Origin: Tricharina praecox | Taxonomy: Eukaryota | Direction: 5' to 3' | Assembly (NCBI RefSeq): GCF_024521635.1 | Contig: NW_026250413.1 | Coordinates: 930,001 to 994,000, forward strand | DNA length: 64,000 nt | In this document: positions 71 through 25,000 of the stretch, piece after piece | Layout: each line of letters starts with the position of its first letter | How positions within the stretch are numbered: the stretch's first letter is position 1 | Position numbers and translations under genes: made by a program | The notes under the pieces: model-generated | What the model saw: only the letters and a program-made list of their open reading frames with translations | Databases searched by the model: none | What the model was told of the DNA's origin: nothing

Positions 71-1328
71 TTTCGTGCTACGCTGAGAACTCTCGCCAAT
101 AACAACCAGCCGCTCTGCTCCCCATCGCCCTCCTCCTGCTGCAACGATCCTCCCCCCCCCAGATCTGTCCCAACCACTCGCTCAACCCATCATCAAACCC
201 GCCGCTGCCAACGCCCTCCATCCAGCTCGCCCCTCGCTCGCCCCTTCATCCCCCCAACTCGCGATCGACTCGGTCTGACCCTGACATCCCGAGAGAGAAT
301 CACCACCCCCGCCGGAAATGCGCTGTGTGTGACGGGCGCATTCTCCACCCTCCTTTGTTTGGTTTCGCGGAAAGAGTAAGAGAGAGAGAGAGAGAGTGAG
401 GGGAATTTTGTTTTTCGCGACCGCGACTCTGCACCGCACCGCACCGCTCTCTGCAGCCACCTACTTCCTATCTTCCATACATACCAATCCGCTCCCAACA
501 CAACATTCATTCGCAACACCGAATCCACCACAACCCACCAACGAAGCAGCCCTTCTCTCCCTCCCGCAGCCACCACCACCACATCCACCGCATCCACATC
601 CACTGCCAACCACACACACCATTCTCCGCCATTCATCCACACAACACCCCATACCCTCACCTCATCCTCTCTCCCTTTTGACACGACGACACGATCTAAA
701 AAAAATACATCCGAATAGCTCCCCGACAGCGAACTTCTCCTGCAAGTTCCGTCGAGTGACTAAATCCAATCACATACCCTCCCGCAGTTCCAAATACTTC
801 TGGAGAAGAAAAAAAGAAAAGAAGAGAGAAAAAGGCCAACTACTTCCTGCTCGACTGCTGTCCTGTCACTGATTGCTACCTGACGCGCCACGATTTTATT
901 TTTTCCTTCTCCATCTTGACGTCTTCTCCTTCTTCGGCTTCTTCTGCTTCTTCTGCTTCATATTCGGCCTCGGATCGAACTCGCGCGCATTGCTGGTATT
1001 AACGACGAAACGAAAAAAACAACTTCGAAAAATTCCCCCCGATAACGAATCTCTTCTTCTCGCTGTACTATTAGAACGAAGACCTACGAATCTTGAAACG
1101 ACCCACAACTTAACCTTACATTCTCCAGCTCGACCAACCCCCCTCTCTTATCCCATCTACGATTGTGCATACCATTCCCACATTGGCTACAGCTACCGTT
1201 CTCTAATCGCCAGCTCACACGTCGCCGCTCAACGCTGTAACGGATCGCTGGGGGAATCGCCCATTCCGCCCACCCCACGCACACACCCACATATCCACAC
1301 ACCAGCTACCCCCCCAACCCACGCGAAA
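71..1328. promoter_or_regulatory. SCB/MCB-like (APSES factor) sites upstream of byr4
   Basis: TTTCGTG 71-77, TTTCGCG 363-369 and 413-419, CACGCGAAA 1320-1328 lie upstream of a cell-cycle gene. These are short motifs and function is inferred. Confidence 0.35.
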
Positions 1329-1360
1329 ATCAACACGACACAGGTAGCACTCTGGACAGC

Positions 1361-4300: not shown

Positions 4301-4770
4301 ATAGCCGTACGCCGCCTCGCCCGGCATTAATCACCAAAGTCAATCAGTCTGGTAGCAAGATGGGGATTCAAGTTGTCGGTGGCATGGTCTTCGATCCCAG
4401 TCGTATGTGCTGGTTGAAAGTGGACGAGGATCCGGACGACGAGGATGATCCTTTCGAGGGACTGGATGACTTGCCCGAGGACATCATGTCTGTCGACGGT
4501 CAATCGGTTGCCGGCGCGCAGACAACCAGTAACTCGGTAGTCATGAGTGGCGTCGGGGGTGCCTTCGGTGGAGCGGCAAGGATCAGCGGTGGCTTTGGGG
4601 AGTTTGTCGTCGGAGAGGAGTTCGATGTGGGTCCGGAATTCGTGCGCCGGCAACGCGAGGAGGAGGACAGGTGGAGGAAGACGACGGATGGGTGGATTCA
4701 GCCGTCGGCCGACCTCACGACCAGAGAGAACCGATACTATTGGCGGGAGCTGCTGGCCGAATCCCGGTAG
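1361..4770 (+). CDS. byr4: Byr4/Bfa1 septation-initiation/mitotic-exit GAP scaffold; join(1361..3866,3921..4118,4214..4770), 1086 aa
   Basis: Motifs VECWDDDPDF, FGDGTELETFDDLPT, FARDTTASRKARE (created across intron 1), GMVYNPRTFRWEGN, RPALIT, GGMVFDPSRMCWLK and EEFDVGPEFVRRQREEE are typical of Pezizomycotina Byr4. Both introns are GT..AG with CTAAC branch sites and keep frame. Confidence 0.88.
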
Positions 4771-7700
4771 CAGTATCGATGGAACTCTGAAACATTTCCT
4801 TGATTATCGGGTGTTTCAAATCTAATATGGACGACGAACACATGGTATGCATTTTTGGACCGGTCCGATGGATGCGCAACACGGGAGCATGGAGGAAGGA
4901 GAGGGACTGGTGTTCTTTGCTGGCGCACGCTGCTTTGCTTATTTTCCATTTCCGCACTTTGTGGTTTTTCTTTGCGGATGGATCGAATCTGGACGTCTTT
5001 GCTGGCTGACTTTTTTTATCTGTTTTATCGTGTCTGGGTTGGGTGTTTTCTACACTCCCTCGTCGTTTATTTTTTTTGCTTACTTTGTTTTGTCGTTGTT
5101 GGTGTTGAATGTAATTGTATACTATTGATTGATACCCATACCCATACCCATTCTTCTTGTTCTTGTTCTTCTTCTTCTCCTTCACCTTCCACCTCTACGG
5201 AACCCTGGTTTCCTTACTATATCTGATACTCCTACCTACCTTCCCTCCCTTACATCATTACCTCTCCTACTCTTACCTACTATATCTGACACTTCGCCAA
5301 CCCCTGAGGCCGTGTTGCGCGGTGTTTTTTTTTCCCCAGCCACGCACTCGGGCGAGGGGGCGCGGATCTATTACAATTTCATTTCTTGTTTTTTTTCTTC
5401 TTCTTTTTTCTCTTTTTCTTTTTTCGGTCTTTCTTATTTTGGTTTTGGTTTTTAGGGCTGTGTTGCGCTACCATGAAGGACTGGGCTGGGATGTCACTGG
5501 GATGAGGGGCGTTTTTTTCTTTTTCTTTTTCTTTCCTAATACCGTTTTTCTTTTCGATTTGAGGGAGATCTTCCCGTCCTATCCGTGCTGTTCCGAAACG
5601 TTGCCGGGAGGGGGGGAAGGGGGGGGGGGGGGGGGGGGGGTAGGTTAGGATGCGCTGCGATTGCGCTGTTATGTTTTTGATGCTTGATGCGTTAGTTAAC
5701 GTTAGGATTTATGTAGCTTTGGGTTTCTGTGTTCTGTTTTTGTCTGGGTTTTGTTGGGTTTGGTTTGGATTCGGTTGGCTGGTTGGCATGGACGGCATGG
5801 ACGGTTTTGATAATGGCTGGCGGACGGTGATGTGATGTGGAGGCGGGTTGGGTGGGTTGGGGGGTAAGTGGATGTGGGATGGAAGGGATGGGAGGAGTGG
5901 AATTATATGCTATGCTGTGCTATGCTGTGCTGTAGCCTGTGCTCTTTGGACTTGGACTTGGACGTGGTATTTCGCCTTGGCTGTAATGGCTGTAATGGCT
6001 ACATGGCTGCGATGGCTGTGAACATGATGTGCTCGATGTATGCGAACTCGTTTTTTTCTCTTCGACGCAAGACAGGACGGGTTGGGAAGGTTTGGGAACT
6101 TACGAAGGGTGGATGGACGGAGGAGGGAGCGCCGAGGGAGTGCCGAGGTGCATGGACTGTCGAGAGCTACATAACTAGGCGGAAGCGGGGTGGTGGTTTG
6201 CTTTTTCCGCACAGGTTATCACTGGGGATGTAGGTATGTGGTCCGGCTTTTCGGGAGTTGCGGCGGGATCCGCACCGATGAGCGGGACGGGATCTTTGGT
6301 AGACCTCTTCTCCAGCGGTGGAATCGTCATGGGCAACGCGGAAACGACCACTCTGGCCGTAGCGAGGAGTAGAGTCACTACGGTGGTGGCCAGGCGTGGA
6401 GTAGGAGGATGCTCAGATCCATGGTCTCCATCTCTCTGCTAGATATGGTACCATACCGCGGGCCGAAAGTAGAACCCGGCCCTGGCGGTGCCGAGAGCAG
6501 TGTAAGGAGACAGCCGAGGGAGGGGGGGAGGGGGAGGTATCTTCCAAACGTCATCACGAGGGCCAGCCTGCCAGGAGCAGGGACTACGGACGATGTTCTC
6601 CCTCAGGCTAGGAATGGTGATAAGGCGAGTGGTGCTGTGCGGGTCAGGTGGAGGGGCCGGGGGACGAAGAGGACGACATCCTTGCGAACAATCTCCCACG
6701 TTTCTGTCTGGAAACGTGGATGCTACAGCCACGCAAAAGGGACGTCTGGCGGACGGATAGCAGGGGGGACACGCGGCAGAAGACGACGAGACCCGCCCAA
6801 CCCGGTGCGCATCAATGGCAATGGAAGTTAACTGCAGGTACATATGTGCGGCCTGGAGCCCGAGACGGCACGACACGGCCTCAAGGTTCAACAAAAACCG
6901 AGGAATTCGGCTTGATTGGTGGATGCCGCGCTCGGGAGTCGGAATAGGTGGTGTGCCGAAGATCGCTCAGCATGGACTGCGGGGCTGCGGTTCCGCTTCG
7001 TACTCCTTGGGGGTCGGGGTGGACTGTTTCGGGCGAACGAGCTTCGGACCGGAATAGCACGGCCGCGTAGTCCCCCCACAGCCACAGCCATAGCCATAGC
7101 CCGGACAGCATTGTATTACGTTGCCGCCTCGTTGCCGCCCCACCCCGCCTCACCTCACCGGGACGTGCTCGGACTGCAGCCGGACAGCAGACCGACTCTC
7201 GGCCTGCGTGCCGGGCAGTCGAGTGACCGAGTTCCAGGATCAGCCTTGTTACTACTAGTATGAGTATGAGTAGTATCACTCGGCCCGCGAGTATTCGTGT
7301 CGTCCGCAGGAAGACAGCCCTGGCTACAGCGCTACGCAGTTGTTATCCTGGGCTTTCACTTGCGCCCCTCCACGCCAGGGTGCGTGGAGGGGGCGGGACG
7401 TTGACTGCGCCTCGCCTCGGACGGCGACGGCTGCGGATGCACCGGGGACTCGGGGAGGGAAAAAAACGTCGCACACGCGGCCCATATACTGGACTGAGCA
7501 TTCCGTAAGCACTGAGGGCAGTTCCCGTCAATCGTCAGTCGTCATTCTGCTATCGTCCGGTAAGCTTGCTGCCTGCGGGTATGTACCTAGGTAGCGAGGT
7601 CGACCGCTCGTCCAGCTTAACCACAACCCGGAAGGTGAGGGGCTATTGCCAGTAGTTGTGTGCTAGGGGAGGTGGGGGGCACTGGTTTTCTGACGGTCGC

Positions 7701-10115
7701 AACTCTGGAGTCTGCATCGCCGCCGTCGCCGTGCCATGATACGGCTCATCGAAACTCGAAAGCTGGCGTCCTCGAAATAGAGACCAAGACCAAGACTGGG
7801 TCCGGATTTTATAACAGCTGGACGCACGGGCATACATGGTAGTGCCGGCTCTACTGCGCACGATAGGTGAAGATTGGCAATCACCGCGATCACTCGACTA
7901 GGAGTGATACATTATGATGCTGAACTTCCAAACGGATCACCGTTTCTTCGCTGCATGCGAAATATATTGAAGGTCTCTCTCTCTCTCTCTGTCTCTCAAG
8001 CGAATCACCGAGAAGCTTAAAGGATGGGCCGTATGTGACGATAACTTGTTCTCTCGACTCACTGAAAAGGAATCCGAGTAACTCCGCCGATCGAAGGAGG
8101 TCGCTCGGAAAACACTTACATGTATAAACTGGTATCACTGTATGTAGAGGATATACCGGAACGTAAAAGCCACGCCCAGGCGCCGAAAAAGCTGAGGAGC
8201 CTAGAAGTGTCTTCCCCTAGTAGGATATATAAAAAAGGCATTAGCCTAGTGCCTAGGGGGCACATTCACCATCGGACATCATAGTTCCAGCCTTCCAGGC
8301 GCGCGATGTCCCCTCACATACGGTGGTTTAACTCCTGAGATACCAACCATTGAGACCTTTTGACCTGATGATGGAATACTTATTTGACACGCGGGCCATG
8401 TATAGCTGATCTTTCAGTGCGGTATGTACCCAGCCCTGCATTCGGTGCATAGATTTCCGAGGCTCCGTAGAACCGTCCCCGGGAGGCTGTGACATCTTCC
8501 CGCCGTTCGCCTGCCAACAAGACTGAAGAATAACAGAAGCGAGCCTTACAGTTGCGTAAGGTGATATATATGCCTCCAGGGCGCTTATGGACGTAATGGA
8601 TGCGGGGCGGATACTGGTATGTAGAGTAGGCACTTGGGTAGCTACACTTAGTTAGGTATCGCAGAGCTCCGTTGGAAATCATCTCTCCGCAACCGAAATC
8701 GTGAATTTCGATGCGTCCGCGCCTTGTGGAGTAAGTGCTCATTTACTGATGCACCGTATTTCATCGGCCGGGATAATCCGTCAACGCAAACGTACTGGTA
8801 GCAAATACCCCCATCGGGATCGTCGGGGTCGTCGGGTGGTGGAGTACGAGTGATGTCGCATGCACACATCCGCGCAGAACGGAAACAGGAAAGCAGGAAA
8901 AACTACCGACGCTTGGCGCCCCCCCATGGGAATGATCACGTACATAGAGGTCCGTCTCGGGTCGGTTGTGGCTCGGCAGACAGCAGGGGGTTGTAGCGTC
9001 GACTACGGGAGGGATCGTCCACTTTCTTGGGAAACTACCCGGGCCGCACCGCTGCGTGGCGCGGTGCGGCGTGGCGTGGGGTAGACGAGCCCGCCGAGCT
9101 CGAGCGCACATACACACGATCGCGGATGACTCGGCGCGTGCTCCGGTGCACCTTCCATGCGAAGAGCTATTGTGCGTACGCACTGATTCGTCGGCATGGG
9201 TTGCTGGATCCGCCCTGCTTTCCGTTCTTCACGGGTTCCTGGGGTTTCGTGGTTGCGGTCAGCTTTAGATCTGCCAACGGGGATTCCCACCGCCTTCAAT
9301 TTTAACGCCTTTCCGTGCCTTTCTTTGCTCTCCCGGTGGTTTGCTGCTACTTCCTACTAGATACGCACGCAGCAAGAGCGGAAGTATTGTATTATGCACA
9401 AGCGATCACTCCGGGGCCGGGAGCCTGTCGAGTGAGTAATTGTGACTAGTCACGCTTCCAGCCCCCCCTCCACCCCCAACCATGGGCCAAGGCGCCGTAT
9501 AGAGTGTTGCCAATCGCTGCGCACCCGTCGGTGAGCCGTGAGCATCCACCGCACACACACACGCATCTACCATACACGTACATGTACGCACGCCGAGCCG
9601 AGTGTAGCTCCGAGCGGCGAGCTCGGCGTAGCATCCCCCACCACGACGAACAGCGGAGTTCTGCCGGCGCATGCACGTACTGCGTACCTGCGGTGTCGGG
9701 AAAGCTACGGGATAACTACGGTACTCTAGGTACATACCGTACCCAGGTAGGTAGGCAGGGCGGTCTTGGCCGACCCACACCGCCACCGCCACGGCCAGCT
9801 GTCGCTCGCTGCCGCTGTGGTGTGCGCTGTCGCCTCATCCTCGGGTCGGGTCGGTCCCGCGACTGCCGTACCTACTTCTTACTCTGCCTACTACTGCAGC
9901 TCGCCGGGCCCCTTAGGTAATGCCGAGCGCTGGTGTAACTACAGTATGGACATATGCCTACCCAAGCATGTAAGGATGTGCATAAATAACCAGCTCAGCT
10001 CTCCGACGCCTTGTGCATAACGTCCGGAGTAACTACTCGGTAGTGCGATGCAGCTACTCTAGATGGCTACTAGATTCGTATAGTAGATGATCACGGCTAC
10101 ATCCCTCGTCCTCAT

Positions 10116-10136
10116 CGTCCCCGTTCCCGTCCCCGT

Positions 10137-10171
<35 letters not shown>

Positions 10172-10181
10172 TTCCCGTCCC
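10116..10181. repeat. (GTCCCC)n imperfect hexanucleotide microsatellite
   Basis: Directly visible tandem GTCCCC/GTCCTC/GTTCCC units. Confidence 0.9.
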
Positions 10182-12147
10182 ACGGCGTGACTTGAACTTC
10201 CCTCCCCCCACCTCCCCTCCCCCAATAGGCCGTGTACATATCATACTCTCTGCACAGCGCGGGGGGCTGGGGGTAGAGTAACTACTCGAACGCAGAACCT
10301 TCACGAGCACGAGCACGAGCACAAGCACGGCCCAGATTCGGACATGGCCGAATCCGGTGGGGTGGTAGCACATACCGAAGTACCTACCCAAGTACCCAGG
10401 TATGATACTTACTCGTAGATCATACGGCTCAGCACCGCAGTCCATCTGTTTATATTTTTTCCTTCTCTTTTTCTTCTCTTTCTCTTCCTTTTTTCCTTTC
10501 CTTCTTTCCTTTTTCTTCCTCCTCCTAAATTTATGTAGGTAGATCCTCGTGGAGCAGATGGCGGCCGTAGCCGTGGTTGCTTTTTTGCCACTGCTGCGGA
10601 GAGGGAGAAAAGAAAAGAGAAGAAAAACAGAAAAGGAAAAAGAAAAGAAAAACAGAAAAGGAAAAAGAAAAGAAAAGCATGAGGAAGAAAAGCAAGAGGA
10701 AGAGGAAGAAACACTACTCTTCACGGCGCTGGGAAGGAGGGGGGGGAGGGGGGGACCGGATGGGATCTGGAAATCCACCAACATCCACATCAACGCTCAC
10801 GGCGCAAGAGGGCAAGCAAGCAGGCAAGCAAGCGCACGCACGGTGAAAAAGTCTATCCCACGTCTACATACATCCACATCCACATCCACATCCACATTGC
10901 ATCCACATCTATCCACATCCCCTCGGTGCGTTGCATGCATACCTCCCCACCCACCCACCTCCCCACCTCACCACGTACCCACTACATACCCACCTACACA
11001 CACGGCAGCACAGTTTCGCGCCGGTGGAGTATCTTCACGAGCCGCAAGTCGCTCCTCCATCTCCAGAGTCACGAAGGCATGGATGGGATGGGGGTGGGAT
11101 GGGGGTCGCCCGCGCGGTGTGTGGGGTTATTTTGCGGGGTACTGCGGGTGTCGTGAAAATCGCGCCATGCAGGGGCGACGGGGCGACGGGGCGTGCGTGT
11201 GTGGCGGGCGAACGGCGCGCGCGCGGGGCGTGGGCGTGGGTTTGGGCGTAGGAGTGGGAGGGAGTGGGCGTGGGGCGGAAGGGAAGGGAAGGGAAGGGAA
11301 GAAGGGAAGGGGTGAGAGAACGTGATCAGACGTATACCATACATACCCAGAACCGTACATAATACGGTAGGTAGAGTATGTAGAGTCTGCGCCTACCCCC
11401 CACCCACCACCCACCCCCCATCGGGAGGTTGGATTGGCGCCCGCGGGATGTACCCGTACATAGACTCGACCCATCCGCTCTGCTCTGCTCTGCCTCCCAC
11501 CACCGGGGCGCAAACAGCGGTTGCTTGCTTGGGGGGCAACAACACCGGGAATCCGCGGGAGTGGATTCCGGGCGGCCGGCCGGGGGATTCCCGCCACGCA
11601 CCCACGCAGAACGCAGCACGCAGAACGCAGAACGCAGCCACAGCGCGAAAGCGAGGCGGAAAAAAAAACGGACGGCCGGCGTGGGATGCGGAATATCGGA
11701 CGAGACCACGGCGTAGCTATAGTAAGTAACCAAGAAGGTGGCGGCCCGCGGGAACCCGCTTGTGTACTGTCTGTGGCTGCGGCTGCGCCGTCCGACGTCC
11801 GAATCCGACGACGACGATCGTGAGTACATACATACTTGGGACTCGGGAGATTTCTGCTGCTTTTACATACTTCTTCCTTTTTTTGCTTCCTTTTTTTCGT
11901 TCGCTCGCGGGAAACGGGAGCGTGAGCGAGAGAGAGATACCGTAGGTACCGTACCCAAAGGGATAGGTATAAGTCGCGGAGCTGGTTACCTATCGCTCTC
12001 CTCACCTCGCTCGCTCGCCTCATCCGCAAGCAAGCAAGCACATCACCCCACGTCTCTGACCCGGAGATATAGTATATATAGTATAGGCAGTATAGTATAT
12101 ATTATCGACACCGCACAGGCACCCGGTACCGACCGAGCGAGGGACCT

Positions 12148-12238
12148 CCCACGCCCACGCCCACGCCCACGCCCACGCCCACGCCCACGCCCACGCCCAC
12201 GCCCACGCCCACGCCCGCGCCCACGCCCACGCCCGCGC
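12148..12238. repeat. (CCCACG)n microsatellite, about 15 units
   Basis: Directly visible, with two CCCGCG variants. Confidence 0.95.
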
Positions 12239-12398
12239 CGGTGGTTTACGGTTTGCGGATGGATTACGGTTGCGTGCTCGTGCCCGTGCTCCTCGCGCGC
12301 ATAGGTACTATAGATATACGGTACATATATGGCAGTTGCGGTGATCGGGAGGGTTGTTTGGATGGTGGATGGTGGGGTGGGGTTGTTTTGGTTGGATG

Positions 12399-12454
12399 GA
12401 TGCGTGGATGCGTGGATGCGTGGATGCGTGGATGCGTGGATGCGTGGATGCGTG
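12399..12454. repeat. (GATGCGTG)7 octanucleotide array
   Basis: Seven perfect copies. Confidence 0.95.
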
Positions 12455-13157
12455 GAGGGATGCCATGGGGGCCGTCGATTGTGGCCGATATATTGCGACG
12501 CCACCTCCACGTCTCTCGCTCGCCTCTCGCCTCTCGCCTCTCGCCTTTCGGAGCTTTGGTGCTTGGGCGTTTTGGCGTTTCGTTTACCTTATAATAGTTA
12601 TACTAGTATCAACAAATCTAGTGGTTATATATGCTGGTATATGCTAGTAGTTATGCTAGGAGAGCGTGCTAGGAGAGCATGCAAGTGTTGTTTCTCTGGG
12701 GTTGGTGGGAATTAGATGCCATTCCCACACACACACATTTTCATGATACAGACTTGACACACACACTTGGCATGAGCCCTGTAGAATATAGAGTATCTAG
12801 AGTAGGCAGAGGACAGTTAACCAGTAGAGTAGTTAAAGTAGAGTAGAGCGGTGTATGCAGAATAGTTACAGAATATGTAGAGTATCTAGAGTAAACTGCA
12901 GCCAATAAAACAGTCTACATACATACAGACGTCCAGCATCTATCTACCAGCATCTATCTACCGGTATCTGCTTGCTGCTGCTTACTGCTGCTGCCATAAA
13001 CGTCCCCCACGTTTTCCGACCGTCGATAGCTATGGATGATATGTATGTACTCTATCGATTTCCATGCACGCACGCAAGCAAGCAGGTAAGTAAGCACCAT
13101 CCGACAGGGAGAGGATTGCCGACCGCCCCGCCCCGATGGGGCCTATCTGCTTATCGT

Positions 13158-13270
13158 GATGGATTGATGGATTGATGGATTGATGGATTGGATTGATGGA
13201 TTGATGGATTGATGGATTGATGGATTGATGGATTGATGGATTGATGGATTGATGGATTGATGGATTGATG
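13158..13270. repeat. (GATGGATT)n octanucleotide array, about 13 units
   Basis: Directly visible, with one short interruption. Confidence 0.95.
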
Positions 13271-14115
13271 GTGGTGGATGGATGGGTTGACGCGACCGAT
13301 GGGGGGGCGATGGGATTGGTTGGTGGATAGATGGTGGTGGTGGTGGTGGTGGATAGATGATGGGTGGTGGATAGATGGATGGATGGAGTGCACAACGTGC
13401 GACATAACCAGATATCTACTCTAACTACTCTAACTATCAGTCGCCAGTGCTGAGTGCGTCCTCGGGTCCTCGAATCCACTCGGCTCCACGCGGCGGAGGA
13501 GGGAGCGAGCGAGCGAGCGACTTCCACGGGGGGCATGTTGGTAGAATCTACATAGAGTAGGTACCGTAGGCCGTAGATGATGTTTAGCAGTTGAAGCTGC
13601 CGATGCTATTACTATTAATAGTCGCGGCCGTCGAGCAACTTGAGACTTGAGTAAGAATGGGTAAGTAGACTGTAGGCCATGGACACATTGGCATTGGGCA
13701 TTGGCATTAGCATTGTTGCAGCAAAGCAGACTGAATTGGCACTCGTCCTTCCTCGTCGTCGTCGGAGAAGTCGGAGGCAGTTGCTGTATGTATGTACATT
13801 CCCGATTCGGCGGGGATTCCTGTCTTCGTTGAAATGCAGCGTGCTTTGCCCTTGCCACTGCCACTAACTCACTGACTACTCCATGCCGTGGATCGATCGA
13901 AAAACGAGCAGAGCAGAGAAGAAAAAAAAAGAAAAAAAAAAAGTGGGATGCTTGGGTGTGGATGGTGGTTGGGTGAGGATCGTTGCGAGCGTTGGAGCGT
14001 TTATGTGCGCACCGACCGAAACAATGTTTTGCATGCGTAGTCGGCCGTTACACTGGTTAGACTAACTGGGTAATTGACTAGCTGAGGGACTAAACGAGTA
14101 ACTAAACGAGCGACT

Positions 14116-14213
14116 GAGTAATTGAGTAATTGAGTAATTGAGTAATTGAGTAATTGAGTAATTGAGTAATTGAGTAATTGAGTAAAGTAATTGAGTAATT
14201 GAGTAATTGAGTA
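14116..14213. repeat. (GAGTAATT)n octanucleotide array, about 12 units
   Basis: Directly visible, with one truncated unit. Confidence 0.95.
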
Positions 14214-14909
14214 GTGGATGGATTGGGTAATTGAGCGATTGACTGACTGGAGTCAGTTGTGCGTGCACTTGCATGTGCGACGGAAAGGGAGGACGACGCG
14301 TACGTAGAGTGGAGTGGAGTGGAGTAGAATAGATGCTGAGACTGACATCTGTGATCTCGTGTTTTACTGTTGCCGTTCTCTTTTTTTATCGTAGTTGTTT
14401 ATTTCATGTTTCCCGCAGCACAGGACGTAGTTGATGGTAGGAGGTGGGTGAAGGGCACTTGAGCACGGCGGATCACTCACGCTCGTCCGCGCCGAGCATG
14501 GGGGGTTCCAGTCGCCAGACGGGCATTCAGTACCCACAAACGTCCATGTCCGTACGGGGCCGGACGCAACCCCTACCTACCTCGCACTCCCTCGCACCCT
14601 CACTCCGTTGCGACGCGCAATCCGTACTATATCCGACTATGTATCCCGCGGCTGGTGGTCCCGACGTGATGTGCGCGAGACGTCGACGTCGACGTTTGCA
14701 TGGGCCCCCCCGCCCCGTCCGCCTCCCCGGGGACCCGGGAAGACCAGTACGCCCTGGTGGGGGACGTCTCTCCATCCGTCCGCCCTCCTCCTCGGACGTG
14801 CGTGTGTGCGTTGCGTGCGTGCGTAATACTAGTATATATTGGTGCTATGTATGGAGCATAAGTCAGCAGCGGCAGTAGCAAGCAGCATGCTGTTGGAACT
14901 TGGGAGAAA

Positions 14910-14996
14910 CACTCCATTCCACTCCATTCCACTCCCCTCCACTCCCCTCCACTCCCCTCCACTCCCCTCCACTCCCCTCCACTCCCCTCCACTCCA
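14910..14996. repeat. (CACTCCCCTC)n decanucleotide array
   Basis: Directly visible; the 5' units are CACTCCATTC variants. Confidence 0.9.
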
Positions 14997-15933
14997 CAGG
15001 GCCGCCACATGGCAGTGGGGGGTGGCCGTCGGCTTGGAATGCTCAGGTACATACGACCAAGCCTACTTACATACCTCTGCGTCTGCAGAACGAATCCATA
15101 GATGTGCAGCGGAGAACACCACCAGCGCCGTCTTTTCCGCCTTGTTGCTGTTGCTGTTGCTGCTGTTGCTGCTGCTGTTGCTGCTGCGTGGATGCCGCGC
15201 GACTACTACTAACTACTAGTATACATACAAAGCAGTAGAGGGTGTAGAGTAGAATATGCTATGTTCGGGTTGCATGGCCTGTGCATGGATGGATGGCCTC
15301 TGCAGTACAGTACAGCGCCGCGCAGCGTGCGTGCGTGCATACATCCCAGGTATGTACTCTACCCAGGTAGGTACACATCCCACCACCATCCACCATCCAC
15401 CATCCACAGTCCGCCCAAACGGTGCTGGGATTCATAGTTACATGCAGACATACATCCATACATACGCTGGCCCCTGGGTACGCCGTACATAGGCTGGGCG
15501 ACGCATCGATCTCGGAATAGCAACTTCACGGGGGGACCCGGGGGCGAGGAGGCAGAAATCACAATGCAAAGTCGATCCTCAATTCAATTCAATCCAATTC
15601 AATGCAATCCAGCTGTCTGAATACATAGATATCACATCACATCTTCCTCTCGCACGCTCGCTCGGCCATCGATCTTCTGCCTCTCTGCATTCAAACATTC
15701 AAACATCCCCCGGGGGCTGCAATGCATTGCACTGCTGGCATCCTCGAGGAAGGGAGGAACTGAACTGAACTGAACTGAACTGAACTGAACTGATCGAGCG
15801 ACAGCGACATTAGTTGTGCTGGTGGTGTGAATGGTTGGATGGGATGGGATGGGTGGTGACTGGGTGACTGGGTGACCGGGCGAGAAAGAGAGACTACATA
15901 CGGCACCCACCGGCGCGATGCAGGGCCTCCGTA

Positions 15934-16080
15934 CATACACACATACACACATACACACATACACACATACACACATACACACATACACACATACACACAT
16001 ACACACATACACACATACACACATACACACATACACACATACACACACCTCTATACATACACACACACATACACACACAT
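15934..16080. repeat. (CATACACA)n octanucleotide array, about 14 perfect units plus a degenerate tail
   Basis: Directly visible. Confidence 0.95.
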
Positions 16081-19000
16081 AACTACACCCAAGCCAGGAA
16101 ACAAAAAGACCGAAGCAACGGATCGAGTAGAGTAGGTTGTGTTGGTTGGTTGGTTGGTTGGTTGTGATATGTGACAGCTACAGGCTACAGCCCCCTGTAG
16201 AGTATCTAGGTGGATGACACATGGAGCTTCGAGCTTGGTGGATGTGGATCCTACCCCGGGGTCCGGAGGTAATGCCCGCCGTGGGATTAGGCCGGCTCGG
16301 GCAGTCAATTCGGTCGGTCTGTCGGTTCGGTTATGTATGGAGTTCTTTTTTTTCTTTCGTTGCTGGTCCTTGGTGCTCGTCGAGGGTATGTAAAGAGAGA
16401 CACGGACGTCGGACGTCGGACGACCATAGCGACATCATACGATTGACGGCGATTGACAGCGATTGACGGCGATAATCAACGCGGGAGAGGATCCTGCCAC
16501 TATGTTACTAGCAGGTACCTGGTCGACCAGGTGTGCACGTCCCCCTCCACCCCGGAGGCCGCCGGGGGGGCCACGGCTGATCTCCCCTCCGCTACCAGTA
16601 TCACAGAGTAACTAGAGTACTACTTGTGGTAGTTGAACGACCGGCAACCACAACCACACGAAAGTGAAACACCGGCGACGATTACATACCCTTCCTTCCC
16701 TCGCGACTACATACATATGATATACATACATCTCGCGTGTGACTATTCGAGAGTCTCGGAAAAACGAAGAAGCAAAGAAACCCCGCGAGGCGTCGTGCCC
16801 GTCCCCGACTCCCCGTCCCTGGAGTATACATAGTACCTACTAGTTAGTACCTGCTCCAGTTCCAGCCGGGGATGAACATTCCCCCGTGCAGCGGCGCAGC
16901 CGTGCAGAGGCACGAAAAGAAAAGCAAAAGAAAAAAACGACATCGCCGGCCCAGCTCAGCTCAGCCCTGCCCTGCCCTCAGGCCCTGCGCCGTGATTCCC
17001 AACCGTCCGGGTACATACAACATACAACATACCTACCAAAAGATCGAGGAGCACGCGCAGGAAACCCCCGTCTGGTCTGCCGGAGCACAAAAACGATTCC
17101 TTCCAGGGCCACGCGCTGTCTCGCCGTCCTCCAGGTTGGTTCCCTCCTACTCGACTTACCTGCACGGCCAAAAGGAAAAGGAAAGGGAAAGGGAGAGGGG
17201 AAAGAAAGAAAGAAAAAGTGACCTGCGCGATTAAATCTTGGAGGAGCTCGTTCGAGCTCGAGCTCGAACTGCCACTGGACAGTTCGATGTGCTGTGTAGA
17301 GTAGTGCAGTTGCCAGTGCAGTGCAACCACAAGATCAGTCCGGGGAAAGAAGAAGAAGAAGCAGAAGCGCAAAAAACAAAGCAGCAGCAGAAGAAGCAGA
17401 ATAGTTAAGGGGAAAAAAGCACTTCCATTCCCTTCCATCCCTCCCTCAGCAACGCCTCCCGTAGTTACTCCGTATCCCGTATCCCGTAATCGATCTGTCT
17501 CAGAATCCCTCTGGGGGTGGTCAGCATTATAGTAGCGGCGCACCCGGAACTTGGCTCCGGGACCCTTTGCGGGGGGTGGGCAGGGCAGGGCGGAAACGAC
17601 AAGACAGGGCAGGACAGGGCCCAACAGGACAAGACAGGACAGGGCAGCACCAGGCTTCCACTCGGCAGGGCGAGACGTTTGACGCCAGCCAATGATGCCG
17701 GAGGGAGCGGATCAACTACATGTGTAGATATGTGCATACATACTCTACATACCATACGCATGAGGGCGTTGCGACAGCTTGTGGTCCGAGCGCGATCGGG
17801 CTCGGTATGATACGATGGCCCGTCTGAGAGCCCTCGACAGCAATCGTGTCTCACACCCAGAGTAGTTGTTTGGTTGCCTAGTTGCCTCGTTATCGGGGAT
17901 GTTCGTTTAGTGTCGGGACGCTTTTCGAGACTCCCGGGGCTCTCGGGAATCCGTGAGGACGTACGGGGGGAGCTGGTTATGCCGAACCGCACTACCCACA
18001 TACTACTCAACTAGTAGTCAAGTAAGAAGTAGGCAAATATGTGACATATCGCAAAACCCACGACCGCGAACTGCGAGATCGAACGCTCGTCGCGGCGCCG
18101 CGCACATGAATGGAAGGTAGTCAGAGGGAGGGGCAAAAGGCAAAAGGGCAAAAGCAAAAGCAAGTACCCATGCCAACGACCCCCCCAAAAAAACCTCCAT
18201 GCGGATACTTACCTTACCTGTCTACATATCATACCTGGGTATGAGAGTTGACATGACAAAAATCCGATCCCCCAACCCCAACCCCAGCCTCAAAAACAGG
18301 CAACAAAAACAAAACAAGGCGTCCAAGCACGCACCCCCGACACGACGACACCAAGCGAGGATGGATCACGCATCCGATTGGCTCGTTTGAAGTTTCGCTT
18401 CCCGGGATGTGGATGTGATGTGTGATGTACATACAGCGGGATGTGATGTACGGTGGGATGTATGATATGTATGGGTGGGTGAGGTGTTGGATGTGATGTG
18501 GATGTGATGTACGGTGTGCGTGCTGAGTGCGTGTCGGTGTGCGTGCTTGCTGGGGGAGGAGTGCGCGCGTGCGTGCGTGCTGAGTACTGTGCGGTGTGCT
18601 GGGTGCTGAACGCTGTGTGTAAAAGTACATTTCTTTCGGGTTGGTGGATGGAGGATGGAGGATATATCTTCCGCAGGGGCGCACGCACGCACGCACCTAC
18701 TATATTACTCCCAACTGTTGCGATATCGATCCTGATGGGGAGCGGTCCTGGTGAAACTGCAATCGTAATCGCAATATGTGTGGGCAGGGTGGACGGGGTG
18801 GACGAGGGAATGTAAATTCGATGGTATGGATGGTATGATAGTACGGTGGTCCGAATACCGGGCCGTATGTACGATACGATATGGTACGAAGTCCGTTCGT
18901 GTCGGCAACAGTTCCGAGTCCAAGCCCGAGTCCGAGCCCAAGTCCAAGCCCGGGTCCAAGCCCGGGTGCTAGGTAGTCCAAGCCCGAAGCATGCGGAACC

Positions 19001-19860
19001 TCGAAGCCACTAGTAGCTAAGTCTCGCCCCGTCCCGTCCAGTCGGCCCGCACCCCGCCTGTTCGTCTTCTTTCATTCCCGACGATCATCTCGGCCCACCA
19101 GTTCTCGGCCTCCACCACCACCAGCACCACCCCCGCCGCCGCCGATCTCCCCCCCTCCGAGCAACCACAAGCAACAACCCACCGATCTCTAGGATCTCAA
19201 CGATCCCCGCCTTCTCCCACCTACTCGTCTGCTCCTGTCATCGATCCGATGCTCCGACACCGCGATGCTCCAATGCTCCGATGCTCCATAGCTTTGCCAG
19301 CCGTGCTCCGTGCTGATTGGCCGCAGTGTCGATATATTGTTGATACCGATACTGTGACTGTGATATCCGCCGGGATCCTCCCCCATGAGCCTACCAACAA
19401 GCCAACCGACTCGACGCGGATCCTACATTATGTATCGAACTATGTGTGAGGAAAGTTCAGCAGCTCAGATACAGCAGCACATCCCCGTATACCATCCCCG
19501 TACACCATCCCCGATACCATCCCCGTATACCGCATACCATCCCCGTATATAGGCCTTCCCCACCACCATGGGCCATGCAAGTAAGCAAGCAAGCAGGCTC
19601 TCGCGTCTGCTTCTCTGTCCTGTCAGTTGTTAACTATGCACCTAGATAGTTGGACCGGGCACGCTCGGAGACATACGCAGACATAGACATACGCAGACAC
19701 AGACACGCTCGGAGACACACACAGAAACTGACAGATACAGATGCATACAGACCCATACAGACACGGATACACAGACCCAACAGCCAACACACCCACCCAC
19801 ACCCCAGGAATCGTATCCAGAAACACATGCTTTGTGTATGTACGGTATGATATGTAGTCG

Positions 19861-19905
19861 ACACGGTGAACACGGTGAACACGGTGAACACGGTGAACAC
19901 GGTGA
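19861..19905. repeat. (ACACGGTGA)5 nonanucleotide array
   Basis: Five copies, directly visible. Confidence 0.9.
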
Positions 19906-20829
19906 TTACATTGGCGACCTGAATACCTAACACCTCGAGCACGCCGTGCAGGCAGCCAGCATCCAGCAGCAGAGCCTACCCAAGCAAGCAAGAAAAGAAA
20001 GGCCCGAGAACTTGCAGCATTGCAGTATTGCAGCAGCAGCATTGCAGCAGTACATAGCAGGAGCAGCAATGCAGCCGTGCAGCCATGCAGCCGGAACTAC
20101 AACGCGCCTGCATTTGGATCAAAAAGGTCTTCACAACACAAGACAAGACAAGACAAGACAAGACAGAACGAGCTCTTCTTTCTCAGCGTCTCATTAGCTA
20201 TGTAGGTAAGGTAGGTAGCGACAGAACCATTACAACAACAGCAACAACAACAATAACAACAACAACTGCTGCTGCTCACTGGCACACACACACACACACA
20301 CACACACACCTGCCCTCTCTCACCCCCCAGCTGTCGTCCATCACTTGAAAGCAAGATATGCGCCCCCTACACCCAGTCCCCGAAAAGAAAGAGAAGGAAA
20401 GAAGGGAAAAAAAACGACTTTTCGCGAGCAAAAACAAGAAAACAAGGAAAAAAAAGCACACATTTTAAGGAGACCCAAAGCAAGAAGGAAAAAAGAAAAG
20501 AAAAAAAGGAAAGAAAAAGGCCCCGATATAATAAGTTTCTCTGGAGTGGCGGTTTGGAAAATTAAGCACAAGAAATTCGATGTATGGAGGTACATCTCGA
20601 TTAGGCATTATGCCACCCCGTAGAGGCGTTGTTGTTGGTCGGTGGTGGTGGCGATCGAAGATGGTCGGATTGTACCCGGCCGGCTCTGCCGCTTCGAACG
20701 TGACACCCCACCAACAACGGCGCAAAAAAAAAACAAAGTCAAAAGTCAAAAGCAGACAATGGTGAACCCCGTATGGAAATAGATGCGGAACAAATTCGGT
20801 ATAGTTGAAAGGCAGGAAAAAAAAGCCGT

Positions 20830-22037
20830 CTACGCCCATTGGGCGGCGAACGGCTGGCTCGAGTGTTGATTCTGGCTGGGCATGTTCTGGAAATGGTGGT
20901 ACTCCTGCTGAGGGGCATGCTGCTGCGGAACGTGCGCCGGAACCTGGTGGTGCAATGGCGGCGATCCACCGACGACCACCACGGTTTGCGCCGAAGGTTG
21001 AATCTGCTGCTGCTGTTGCTGCTGTTGCGGCGGCGGCGAATTGTGGTAGTCGAGGGGAGTGTCGGCGTGTGGAACGACTCGCGGAGGGGTGCGCCTCAAT
21101 GGAGAGCGTCTGGGAGGAGACGTCCGCCTGATGCTCTGGGGGCTTCTGCGAGCCATGCAGCTGGGGCATCCCCTGACGAAGCGCGCAATCAATTCCTTGG
21201 GAACCCTGAACAACTCGATTAGGCTCAATCTCAACGGGAAAAAAAGAGGTCGCAACTATGGGGGGAGAAAGCTTACCACGAGTAGAACTGACGGACCTGA
21301 GAGGACGTCTTGTCCCGTCCCCCGTGTTGGCATTGGATGTGCGCCGTAGTTAGGATCCCAAACAATTGCTCACGGATGGCAACCGGCTTGTTCTCGTGCA
21401 TGACAACCTGGCTGGTGCGACCATTCTCGTCCTCCTGAAAGTCCAAGACGAACATCTTCTTGGCCCAGAACCGGAACTGCGCCGACTCGATAGTCGTGCA
21501 CTTGGGGTCCCGCAGAACGGCGCTGATGTTGTTGTAGCGGACCTGTCCGATCAGAGCCTTGTCGCGTTTCTTCTCCGAGAGCGACATGACGTAGTCATTG
21601 AGCAACACGTCGAATTCGCGGAGGGTGGGAAGCTGGGAGTCGTGGGTCAGCGCCGCTGGAACGGCACCGCTGTACAGGTTCATGTGGTAGAGGGGCGAGT
21701 ATGTGGACGGATGCGGCTGCATCTGCACGTCCATGCCGATCATCGGAGCCGGTAGCTGCGGCTTCCATTGCTCGAAGGCGGTCTGATTGTTGTGGACGGG
21801 CATCTGCTGGGTGGGTAGGCTCTGCGAGAACACCCGGAAGTCGGTATTTCCACCGTAGCCCAGGTGGCCGCCAGCGATGCTGGGGCCGTTGTTCATGCCA
21901 TTGGCCGTGGAGGGTCTCGCGGCGTAGGGGTAGCCGGCTTCGAGGGAGTGTTGGGAGCGGCGTCTTCTGGTCGGGGATGCTTCGTGAACCTCGTCGTAGT
22001 CGTAAGTCTTGGTATTCATAATGCGGGTCTGGTTCAT
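20830..22037 (-). CDS. NOL4-like protein with an integrase-type H2C2 (HHCC) zinc-binding domain and no integrase catalytic core; complement(join(20830..21205,21277..22037)), 378 aa
   Basis: Spliced product reads QFRFWAKKMF...HENKPVAIREQLFGILTTAHIQCQHGGRDKTSSQVRQFYSW|VPKELIARFVRGCPSCMARR, i.e. H-x4-H...C-x2-C. The 71-nt intron (GTAAGC..CTAAT..CAG) splits the Trp codon and restores frame. The domain is flanked by Q/P/H-rich low-complexity regions. The start codon could lie further upstream. Confidence 0.85.
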
Positions 22038-25000
22038 GGCGTCGTTATATGCGTTTATAGGTGCTGGGCGCTGTAGCGAGAGTTTGGAGGCGTCGAGGAA
22101 GAGGTATATATGCGACGGGGGAGGAGCAAGATGGATGGGTATAATGGTGGGGGTATGCGGTGCTTGCGAGGAGAGCTGTAGGCAAAAGGGAGGCGAAGAG
22201 GTGAGGGGATTGGCCTGCAATGCGATCGTCGGAGCTGTTTTGATGTTGAGGAGGAGGACGAGGAGGAAGACGAGGAGGACGGTGAGGATGAGGAGGTCGA
22301 GGTCGAGGTCGAGGTCGAGGAGGAGGAGGATGCGCGGTGATTTAACGAGGGGCAGCTCAAACAGCGAAGGGTTTCCGTTCTCTGAACAGGTTCTGCGTGT
22401 GATGAAGTTGGAGCTGAAAGGAAGAAGAAGGGGCAGGAGATGATAGACATGAAGCTGTATTAAATAACAGCGGGATCGAAGAGGCAGATTCAGGTTGAGA
22501 AAGCCCCACGCACCCACCGATCCTAACCTTGATGATTGCTAAAGGGATGGACGAAAAAAGCAATTTAGTTATTGCATTGCGCTGCGTTGCCGTCTTTTTT
22601 TTTTTCCTTTCCTTCCTTCTTTCTTTCTTTCTTTCTTTCTTTTTTTTTCTCCCACTTTCTGAGAAGCTACCAGCTATCCGCTTAGCTCGATTTCGTTATC
22701 AGTAGAGTACTGTCCCGGTTGGACGGGATCAAGAAAAAGCAAATATAAATCAACCTGTCAGGCTGGGGGGGGGTTTGGTACACAGTGGCTGTTGTGACAC
22801 GATAGCTTTCCTGCGAATACCGTAATTACCATACATACAGCTCTTAGTGGATGATGGAGGTGAGCTTGCGCGGGAATTTCCACTAGTAGAGTACGGTATG
22901 TAGGCTGCCTGTGTTTCCATATCCCAGGTGGAAGGAAGTGCCCTGTTCAGCCAAACAAGCAGCAGGGTAGACGAAGAGAGTGGGATATCGGGAGCCAGTA
23001 GGTGGAGCTAGAGCAGGTAGCTAGCTAGCTAGGGAGGTGGGCCATAGCTCGAGGTGGGAGGCAAATGGGGTGGGGGGTTGCTATCATGTTGGGGTAGTGC
23101 AAGTGCATCGCGAGGTGCCTGTAGGAATCCTCCGAGGAGTATGTATGTAGCAGTATCGGCGTCGTATTGGAGTCGAGCAGTTAGAGAGCAGTGCGATAAT
23201 GGTTGCAACGAGCGCAGTAGCGGCGGCAGGCGGCAATTGCAAAGCATAGCCGGGTGGGGAGGGCGGGCAAGAAAGGAGAGCCAGGTTTGTATGTGTGTAG
23301 GTAATGGCGACAGACATCAGACATGTTTGTTGGAATTCCGTCTGATCTAGGAGGATCAGTAGCAGAGGCAGAAGCAGACGTCTGCAGGTCGCGCACTCAT
23401 GCGGGAAGAATGGAATTGTGTGGAGAGAGAGAAAGAGAAAGAGGGAGGGTGCCGGGGGAGGGCCAACGGGGAGGGCCGTAGCAGGTCTTCGGAAACATTG
23501 AAGCGTTTGTTTTACTCCGATATGAAGATGGAATGATTCCTGTTCGTTTTTGCGTGGTGAGTCCCTCCCTCCCTTCCGTATCGGTTGTCTGGCACATACA
23601 TACTTTGGCAGTTGGAGGCGATGGCCTGCCAGTGAACCCGGAATCAATGGCCTGCCAGTGGATCCGGAGGCAATATCACGACGTCGAAAGTTCTCGGCTC
23701 CGATTGAGCTTGGCAGCTTCTTGGCTCCAACATCAAACACGTTGAAGTCGATCGCACCGCCTATAGATGGCAATGTTCCTGAGCATCATCTTCTTGGATG
23801 AGGCATTTCACATATACCGCATTTGCAATACCGATCAAAATACATACTTGGGCAACTATAGATACACCTTGTACCTACATAGCAGGTGGTACGTGTGTAC
23901 CCAGATTGCATATAGCCCCGCGATGAGGAACTTCACCCCCACCACCGAAGAATGTACAGAAGTATGTACCTACATACTCCCGATGGCATTCAAACTTCAA
24001 CGTGAAGTTTGAACTCGTTTCTGTTTGTTTTCTCTCACTGGAGCTTCGAGCTTGATAGCTTTGATCGACCTCCCAACCTTAGTGTCGGTCTCATCATCTA
24101 TTTCGGACAGTGTCAGACTTGGAGCCTACCTACCCACCTAGCTCCACCGTGCTGTGGCCGCTGGTTTCCCCTCGACCGACGACGGCTCGCGGCCTGTCAA
24201 AGAGTTGCCAGAATTGGTCGCTTGGACTTGAGCTTGATGCCCTTCTATTTTTATCCGATTTGGTGAATCGGTATCCCACCCCCCATCATCCATGGCCGAA
24301 CCGCCGTTACCATATCCTGAACAGAACCCACCCCATATGCAGAGCATCCATGGATGTTTGAATATGCTGTGTGCGTGTGCGTGTGCAGTGCGCCAGACAC
24401 GGCCGGTCTCCGATAATCCTCCTTGCAGATAATGCAGACTGGCGATAGTTATCGATTTATGTCTCCCAACTCCGCTGCTGCTGGACATCCATCAAACCTG
24501 ATGCGTACAGACATGCGCCGTGTGCCTCTACAGTACCAGTGCAGGGATATCCAGAGAGAGCATTAGCGAGGGGGGGAGAAACTGGACGCCGGACGCTCGA
24601 CAGCGGTGGGTGAGTGTGAGTGTGTATGTGGTGATACTCTAGGGTATATGTGTGTGTGTGGGTGTGGTGATATGTACTGTGGATTGAGGCGAAACTCCTC
24701 GAGCGGAATCTCCGATGTGAGGGTTATGTTAGGGAGTTCGGTGGTGGGGAGCCACTCCTGAGTTTGATCCGCATTGGACACCACTTTGGACAGCGTGGAA
24801 ACTTGAAAGGGTACAAAGTAGGCAGATACATGCACCTACCTACTTGGCTACATGGTATATGTAGGCATGGATGGATGAGCTGCCGCTTGGAGCCGATGGC
24901 CAATGAGCTATCCGACATGCACGGCGCCGCGATGGGGACTGATCAATGCGCTGGATGGGGGGTTTACCGACCTTGCTCGCTGCACCTGAATTGCGCCGCC

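Follow-up and report, generated by a model that had tools for sequence, protein, structure and literature searches.

Can a fungal gene carry the zinc finger of an integrase without being part of a transposon, and, if so, what may the finger have become? The question is raised by a gene on the minus strand of a 64,000-nucleotide stretch of DNA from Tricharina praecox (Pezizales, Pyronemataceae; contig NW_026250413.1, positions 930,001 to 994,000), referred to below as the window. The gene, called here the HHCC gene after the four zinc ligands of its finger, has its coding sequence between positions 22037 and 20830 of the window. An initial annotation, made from the letters of the DNA, had described an intact, spliced gene whose only folded domain is a finger of this type, and had interpreted it as an old transposon-derived host gene repurposed as a nuclear regulator. 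The computational analysis presented here confirms the observation and partly supports the interpretation. The gene is an old transposon-derived fungal host gene, and the family to which it belongs is a further case of a kind already known, that of host genes exapted from the zinc-binding N-terminus of an integrase. We describe the gene and its surroundings, then the folded module and its relatives, the conservation of the family among fungi and, finally, the functions that can be proposed for it.

Gene model and genomic surroundings

The gene is made up of two coding exons. Exon 1 (22037 to 21277, minus strand) starts with the ATG at 22037-22035, before which the 421-codon open frame has no other in-frame ATG, and encodes residues 1-253 as well as two bases of the codon of Trp254. 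It is followed by an intron of 71 nt (21276 to 21206, minus strand) of the GT..AG type, which opens with GTAAGC, contains a CTAAT branch-like site and closes with CAG. This intron interrupts the Trp codon in phase 2 and falls after the two His and before the two Cys of the finger, hence inside the domain, as had been noticed at the outset. Exon 2 (21205 to 20830, minus strand) provides the last base of Trp254 and residues 255-378 and ends with the TAG at 20832-20830. The spliced product of both exons is a protein of 378 amino acids (aa).

The gene is transcribed and spliced, and the splice is confirmed by two independent results. First, in run X1 a single contig of 1577 nt joins positions 20747-21204 to 21276-22394 and omits exactly the 71 nt predicted to be spliced; the skipped segment ends with CT..AC on the forward strand, which corresponds to GT..AG on the minus strand. 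Second, the spliced product has a counterpart at NCBI, where the Tricharina praecox protein P0006 (hypothetical protein BZA05DRAFT_337173, 260 aa) matches it with 100% identity and reads QVRQFYSW-VPKELIARF across the junction, the same splice as in the X1 contig. The two-exon model, the contig and the public protein therefore agree on an intact, spliced gene. The label “RNA” of X1, like that of a second run, X2, is a guess made by the search tool, and neither run is on record as RNA. Some depth persists in the intron bin of X1, and unspliced molecules or DNA must therefore also be present in this run. In X2, no contig was found at the locus, though 0.90 of the words are present. The transcript-type contigs of X1 together cover 20685 to 22394 (minus strand), their 5′ end being at least at 22394 and their 3′ end at least at about 20685, the position to which short X1 records extend. 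The 5′ untranslated region (22038 to 22394, minus strand) is thus a leader of at least 357 nt, with zero upstream ATG in the X1 contig.

The public model P0006 begins at an internal methionine (residue 119) and leaves out residues 1-118 (22037-21684). These residues are conserved and include the invariant RRRRSQxSL motif described below. Over the full length of exon 1 (100%), a close relative, P0005, is 74% identical. The start at the ATG at 22037 is preferable to that of P0006, since close relatives keep the first ~45 residues.

Are there parts of a transposon around the gene? The initial annotation had seen no DDE core, reverse transcriptase (RT), long terminal repeat (LTR) or terminal inverted repeat (TIR) nearby, and this holds. 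Forty open reading frame (ORF) translations of the window, 34 of them from among the 78 listed ORFs of the 8-36 kb region that reach 110 aa, were scanned against Pfam, and none gave RT, RNase H, rve, transposase or gag above noise. The one real match among the 40 is an ERD2 receptor (59741-60331). Between 8 and 36 kb, no LTR- or TIR-like pair was found around the gene, the repeats being microsatellite arrays and short low-complexity pairs instead. Neither P0006 nor either exon product has a Pfam match to rve. The same is true of the relatives, since 0 of the 39 long ones (>752 aa) carry rve or RT; two of these 39 carry other domains (Rap-GAP and Kelch-type) and look like merged gene models. 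Finally, the 90% cluster of P0006 has a single member on a single contig, a count that refers to a database cluster and not to copies in a genome.

The folded module and its disordered arms

The protein is predicted to have a single folded domain, a module of 140 aa made of two extra helices, an integrase-like N-terminal extension domain (NED) with a helix and a beta-hairpin, and the HHCC zinc domain with its three helices. It covers residues 137-276 (about 19-158 in P0006), encoded at 21139-21629 on the minus strand, a span that includes the intron. An AlphaFold2 model of P0006, calculated with a 14-member alignment, has a predicted local distance difference test (pLDDT) value above 90 at residues ~20-155 and below 60 elsewhere. 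In a second model, obtained with exon 1 and seven close relatives, residues 1-141 have a pLDDT below 50 almost throughout. In the P0006 model, helices 21-34, 37-43, 47-58 and 68-77, the last of which contains the FRFWAKKMF motif, precede a three-stranded sheet (79-101), and the helices of the HHCC domain (104-156) come last. The claim that the finger is the sole folded domain therefore stands as far as the number of domains is concerned, but not for its extent, which is that of the whole 140-aa module.

The zinc site is expected to be formed by His233 (21341-21339) and His238 (21326-21324), which make up the H-x4-H half (21324-21341, minus strand), and by Cys267 (21168-21166) and Cys270 (21159-21157), which make up the C-x2-C half (21157-21168, minus strand). 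In P0006 numbering these residues are H115, H120, C149 and C152. All four are invariant in 14 of the 14 aligned members, with the arrangement H-x4-H-x28-C-x2-C. Integrase HHCC domains follow the spacing H-x(3-7)-H-x(23-32)-C-x2-C, and that of the 378-aa protein falls within this range.

Profile searches led to the same family. Over the last 48 residues of the module, P0006 matches the Pfam family Integrase_H2C2 (PF17921) with 30.0 bits and an E-value of 5.5e-7, the gathering cut-off being 25.5 bits. Four other full-length members score 29.6-34.8 bits, so that five members out of five are above the cut-off. Since the domain is divided by the intron, exon 1 alone remains under it, with 10.3 bits. 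Integrase_H2C2 is the sole Pfam family reported for P0006 and for both exon products.

The fold was compared with 48,161 PDB representative chains in an exhaustive scan independent of Foldseek. The first three matches are integrases: that of prototype foamy virus (PFV; 4bac_A, residues 8-97, Z 6.7, root-mean-square deviation 2.6, 83 aligned residues), that of Ty3 (7q5b_A, residues 24-135, Z 5.9) and the N-terminal domain of that of Moloney murine leukemia virus (MLV; 3nnq_A, residues 13-105, Z 5.0). The next row is unrelated, with a Z of 3.8. All three integrases align to residues ~46-153 of the model, and we take their matched ranges to span NED and HHCC, using the domain names and limits of the PFV and MLV structures. 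Foldseek searches gave Ty3 (probability 0.96) and PFV (0.90) in the PDB and, among viral models, fragments of foamy-virus Pol (probability 0.97-1.00, E 0.005-0.009).

The strength of these matches has to be weighed. The structural scores are modest: the best Foldseek E-value against the PDB is 0.055, and Z values of 5-6.7 are below the line of ~8 under which the tool advises caution, as a common arrangement may be at play. Moreover, a search of PDB sequences with the sequence profile of the family returned 0 chains at E<=10. These points speak against the assignment. It is nevertheless retained, because the top matches are all one object, a clear gap separates them from the rest and the Pfam result agrees with them. 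The integrase-type finger proposed initially is thereby upheld, both by PF17921 and by the best folds.

The likeness to the N-termini of the integrases of Ty3/gypsy elements, of spumaviruses (PFV) and of MLV thus concerns the Pfam family, the HHCC ligands and the NED and HHCC fold over ~83-92 residues. There are also differences. The fungal gene has no DDE core, no C-terminal domain, no RT, LTR or TIR; its product has two extra N-terminal helices and disordered arms rich in Gln, Pro and His; and the gene, whose finger is interrupted by an intron, is found at a single syntenic locus. It would have arisen from the non-catalytic N-terminal part (NED and HHCC) of a retroelement- or Ginger-type integrase, two helices being added, and the catalytic core of the ancestral integrase would have been lost.

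The two extra helices may themselves come from an integrase. The ESM Atlas model of the protein aligns over residues 19-158, hence over the whole module, with a cluster of “KRAB-A domain-containing protein 2-like” proteins (template-modelling, or TM, score 0.81), 87% of whose members have rve, and with an arthropod Integrase_H2C2/rve cluster (TM 0.78). For these Atlas comparisons, no alignment or E-value is given, and the models are predicted on both sides. That the helices stem from an integrase, perhaps one of the Ginger2/KRBA2 type, is therefore only a lead, as is the likeness of the whole module to the KRBA2-like and Ginger2-type integrases of animals. Unlike the fungal protein, these integrases keep the catalytic core. 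The integrase of KRBA2 is reported to derive from GINGER2 (PMC3575427).

The module is basic, with 22 Lys and Arg vs. 15 Asp and Glu and a pI of 9.5. In the 14-member alignment, 15 of its Lys and Arg residues are invariant. A prediction of the module as a homodimer with zinc gave a score of 0.00 and was counted for neither side.

On either side of the module, the N-terminal ~136 aa and the C-terminal tail are predicted to be disordered. The C-terminal 102 aa contain 20.6% Gln, 17.6% Pro and 8.8% His, in agreement with the Q/P/H-rich flanks first described, and the tail (20833-21078, minus strand) includes a run of eight Gln. Two short motifs stand out in these arms. In the alignment of the close relatives, the N-terminal arm has a basic Ser motif, RRRRSQHSL (residues 24-32; 21942-21968, minus strand), in which R25, R27, S28, S31 and L32 are invariant in seven relatives out of seven; the pattern R-x-R-S-x-x-S-L...P-Y...R is likewise invariant in the N-termini of these seven. 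This motif is a candidate site for a basophilic kinase. The second motif adjoins the C-terminal side of the finger and is a basic Ser/Thr-Pro cluster (residues 273-296; 21079-21150, minus strand), the alignment of which has an invariant RR and recurrent TPP or SPP. It may combine a nuclear signal with sites for proline-directed phosphorylation.

Spread, selection and synteny of the family

An exhaustive HMMER search over 1.84 billion cluster representatives retrieved 1015 representatives at E<=1e-3, of which 675 also pass E<=1e-10 and 375 pass E<=1e-30. In this and the other searches, the named members among the matches listed include Pezizomycetes (Tuber, Morchella, Ascobolus, Geopyxis, Trichophaea, Kalaharituber), Eurotiomycetes (Aspergillus, Penicillium, Histoplasma, Blastomyces, Coccidioides, Paracoccidioides), Agaricomycetes (Tulasnella, Rhodonia, Plicaturopsis, Wolfiporia), Pucciniomycotina (Sporobolomyces, Rhodosporidiobolus, Cronartium) and Mucoromycota (Rhizopus, Sporodiniella, Phycomyces, Gilbertella, Absidia, Dichotomocladium), together with lichen-formers, Xylona, Kwoniella and Mortierella, the assignment to classes being taken from general knowledge. 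Named members are thus found in Mucoromycota, Mortierellomycota, Basidiomycota and Ascomycota. Among the matches listed, none bears a name from Saccharomycotina, Sordariomycetes, Dothideomycetes or Leotiomycetes, which does not mean that these groups lack the gene. All are labeled hypothetical or “Integrase zinc-binding domain-containing”. The motifs hardly vary: in 286 proteins of the family, HGGRDKT was counted 265 times, and most instances of the other motif have the form AQFRFW[VA]KKM. Compared with the core of the window protein, those of the 13 other aligned members, Mucoromycota included, are ~42-53% identical.

The intron, the neighborhood and the selection acting on the gene were compared in 80 metagenome loci (L numbers), many of which are too short to judge and some of which represent one organism from sister samples. 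In 48 of these loci, the exon-2 motif could be recognized, the pattern being unmatched in the other 32. AG/G stands directly before VPKE in 35 of the 48, which means the same position and phase of the intron as in the window. Twelve have no intron at VPKE; several of these are short contigs, maybe transcripts, and at least one is of the Mucoromycota type. One is unclear. In five loci (L047, L054, L057, L058 and L063), where VPKE is not immediately preceded by an intron, the tblastn match is interrupted near residue 130 of P0006 rather than at 136/137. One sub-lineage thus seems to have a displaced intron or another one altogether.

Selection was estimated as the ratio of nonsynonymous to synonymous substitution rates (dN/dS) by NG86 over the core, using pairs with a finite dS, most others being saturated at synonymous sites. 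Between the window and L001, its collinear counterpart (139 codons), dN is 0.068 and dS is 0.431, which gives a dN/dS of 0.16. The other pairs gave 0 (L014-L017), 0.012 (L004-L010), 0.019 (L013-L014), 0.058 (L008-L009), 0.068 (L020-L022), 0.072 (L042-L043) and 0.085 (L024-L026). The highest value, 0.26, belongs to L006-L012, a pair with almost no changes of either kind. The ratio is thus between 0 and 0.26, and below 0.09 in seven pairs out of nine, which is far below 1. The module is thus under strong purifying selection. The C-terminal tail is looser than the core, with a dN/dS of 0.32.

The gene also keeps its neighbors. In 16 of the 80 loci, the flanking sequence retrieved with the HHCC gene contains a homologue of ERD2 (ER lumen protein retaining receptor, or KDEL receptor; ER, endoplasmic reticulum), which is represented in the window by an exon at 59741-60331 on the minus strand (PF00810, E 1.2e-48). 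A homologue of an 889-aa ORF (1241-3907) is near the HHCC gene in 15 of the 80, including loci in which the HHCC core is only ~41-45% identical to that of the window. In the window, this ORF and one of 217 aa form a pair (1241-4767, plus strand), a synteny marker that is mostly of low complexity and rich in Pro, Ser and Thr. The pair is 85% identical in L001, a locus collinear with the window to either side of the HHCC gene, and recognizable at 35-40% in distant fungi. The two large syntenic neighbor ORFs have no Pfam family even at E<=5. To judge from these flanks, the HHCC gene sits at a syntenic locus across distant fungi. The comparisons that the initial annotation had proposed, namely a search for orthologs with synteny and a structure prediction, therefore gave conserved neighbors in the first case and, in the second, a confidently modeled module whose best matches are integrase N-termini.

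Could the sequence still be a fragment of a mobile transposon or of a recently decayed one, that is, a mere integrase remnant? The only database family matched is indeed an integrase domain. Against this stand the spliced transcript, the intact frame and the signs of purifying selection, the neighbors conserved across distant fungi and the shared intron, the lack of rve, RT, LTR or TIR in the scanned surroundings and of rve or RT in the long relatives, as well as the single-member cluster of P0006. Such a remnant is so improbable that it is effectively excluded. Selection, linkage and splicing all favor a host gene, since dN/dS is low, no integrase core is linked to the finger and the 71-nt splice is seen.

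Some features of the locus are particular to the window. In many other fungi, the ERD2 homologue is 1-8 kb from the HHCC gene, vs. 38 kb in the window. The block has therefore been expanded or rearranged in the lineage of the window. In several distant loci (L033, L034, L072 and L077-L079), the ERD2/HHCC block is accompanied by a homologue of another ORF of the window, of 698 aa (39194-41287, minus strand), which has no Pfam family. Between the HHCC gene and the gene at 1241-4767, the spacer (~5000-20800) measures ~16 kb, vs. ~6.5 kb in the collinear L001. It is packed with microsatellite arrays of 6-12-nt units, among them (CCCACG)n at 12148-12240, (GATTGATG)n at 13150-13275, (AGTAATTG)n at 14100-14230, (CACTCCCCTC)n at 14910-15000 and (ACATACAC)n at 15925-16050. 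The ORFs of this spacer have no Pfam match.

Precedents and possible functions

What would a host do with such a module? Fungi offer one precedent, Spt10 of Saccharomyces cerevisiae. Its integrase-type His2-Cys2 finger is reported to be homologous to the foamy-virus integrase and to bind DNA in a sequence-specific manner, at the upstream activating sequence (UAS) elements of histone genes (PMC1807970). Like Spt10, the protein studied here is a fungal host protein with an integrase-type finger, and its best structural match is the foamy-virus integrase. Spt10, however, has a GNAT (acetyltransferase-like) domain before the finger, where the protein of the window is predicted to be disordered. 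Membership of the Spt10 family was considered and rejected. Indeed, the Spt10-type family zf-H2C2 (PF09337) scores under its cut-off of 25 bits in two of five members (17.9 and 13.3 bits) and does not match P0006, and no GNAT family was found at E<=1 in the five full-length members, in exon 1 or in exon 2. Moreover, Spt10 is reported to be present in its own right in Pezizomycotina (Beauveria; PMC8619123), and the HHCC family is therefore distinct from it.

In vertebrates, ZBTB11, GIN1 and NYNRIN are also host genes that retain an integrase HHCC. In ZBTB11, every ligand residue of the HHCC is reported to be required for function as a transcriptional repressor; point mutants of the HHCC abolish this function, deletion of the N-terminus does not, and a regulatory or structural role was suggested (PMC5384227). 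The same source gives H-x6-H-x29-C-x2-C as the spacing in the three proteins, vs. H-x4-H-x28-C-x2-C in the fungal family. The surroundings of the finger also differ. ZBTB11 adds a BTB domain and C2H2 arrays, GIN1 and NYNRIN keep the integrase core, and in the fungal protein the N-terminal module stands by itself.

Considering these precedents, the function that we favor, at odds slightly better than even, is that of a nuclear DNA- or chromatin-binding regulator. The basic 140-aa module would bind DNA or chromatin in the nucleus, and the disordered Q/P/H-rich arms would recruit transcription co-factors under the control of two conserved candidate sites of phosphorylation, the N-terminal RRRRSxxS and the S/T-P cluster after the finger. 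In intasomes, NED and HHCC contact viral DNA ends and bridge subunits. Disordered Q/P/H-rich arms resemble many activation or co-factor-recruiting regions. It is because of the basic module, of these DNA contacts in intasomes, of the need for the HHCC in ZBTB11 and of the arms with their motifs that this role is favored.

Several observations argue the other way. Nuclear localization, zinc binding and DNA binding are all deduced by analogy. The HHCC of integrases also multimerizes, and the fold would suit the binding of proteins just as well. In addition, the disordered N-terminus appears weakly constrained, with a dN/dS of 0.50 for residues 1-118 (0.29 for residues 1-50). The module could then be a protein-protein or oligomerization unit, and the protein an adaptor or co-factor that its partners would bring to chromatin or to some other complex. 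The bridging of subunits by the NED and N-terminal domain fold in intasomes is established, long disordered Q/P-rich arms would suit a scaffold, and the regulatory or structural role suggested for the HHCC of ZBTB11 (PMC5384227) goes in the same direction. However, the basic character of the module (pI 9.5, 15 invariant Lys and Arg) fits nucleic-acid binding better, and the Spt10 precedent is one of direct DNA binding. We regard the adaptor function as possible, with a real but minor share of the probability, and keep the DNA- or chromatin-binding regulator as the preferred reading.

The biological process in which such a regulator would act may be indicated by a mushroom. The initial annotation knew of no functional characterization in fungi, and our survey of the literature on a fungal integrase zinc-binding host family was otherwise empty, but one possible exception emerged, a preprint of June 2026 on psr3 of Coprinopsis cinerea. 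In the psr3 knockout, caps are white and spores fail to mature; mutant basidia are described as finishing meiosis and bearing unpigmented, undetached spores, into which the preprint reports that no nuclear migration was observed (10.64898/2026.06.13.732014). PSR3 (JGI protein 450751; JGI, Joint Genome Institute) is presented there as conserved, with a nuclear signal and with IPR041588 as its sole domain (10.64898/2026.06.13.732014). The HHCC family shares this InterPro domain and is present in Agaricomycetes (Rhodonia, Plicaturopsis, Tulasnella). PSR3 is a possible orthologue, though no more than a candidate member of the family. A search from the Rhodonia member, in which low-complexity words crowded the candidates, gave four proteins, none of them from Coprinopsis. 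If PSR3 is the orthologue, the role of the HHCC gene would be developmental, for example in spore maturation.

A quite different use of the same parts would be genome defense. Those parts of an integrase that hold the ends of viral DNA and link the subunits are precisely what the folded module contains, the catalytic core being absent. As a decoy, it might bind the ends of retroelement complementary DNA or poison the assembly of the Ty3/gypsy integrase, and so act as a dominant-negative restriction factor. In favor of this function, Ty3/gypsy elements of fungi carry the same Pfam domain; the match in the Aspergillus literature is a centromeric retrotransposon (PMC8454179). Nevertheless, a core that is ~42-53% identical between the window protein and the 13 other aligned members, with a dN/dS of 0-0.26, is the opposite of the fast evolution of an arms race, and the knockout of the possibly related psr3 has a developmental phenotype, not a transposon one. 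We consider this function very improbable.

How far back could the domestication go? A putative likeness to the N-terminal region of animal NOL4 and NOL4L had been put forward from the layout of the motifs. In the ESM Atlas rows there is no NOL4-named cluster, including in a look-up limited to named clusters minus six integrase and RT families, and the comparison by features produced no usable hit. A full-text literature search gave no paper joining “NOL4” and “integrase”, and none of the papers listed by a broader search mentions NOL4. In its strongest form, the hypothesis would be that the module was domesticated once, before the split of fungi and animals, that it survives also as the N-terminus of NOL4/NOL4L, and that the fungal protein controls spore maturation as a sequence-specific, DNA-binding master regulator, PSR3 being its orthologue. 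We hold this combination to be unlikely. If a single domestication before the split were true, the gene would be among the oldest transposon-derived host genes.

Across fungi, the description of this gene has so far been limited to an automatic domain label. Compared with Spt10, ZBTB11, GIN1 and NYNRIN, it is unusual in having the non-catalytic N-terminal module alone, in its breadth across fungi and in its extreme conservation. It is also a clean case for studying what the NED and HHCC unit of an integrase does once freed from integration. If the psr3 phenotype does belong to the HHCC family, the gene would regulate spore formation in a wide range of fungi. It would then be relevant to mushroom breeding, where sporeless strains are concerned, and to the way in which molds and pathogens spread, among them Aspergillus, Coccidioides, Histoplasma and Rhizopus, each of which has a member of the family.

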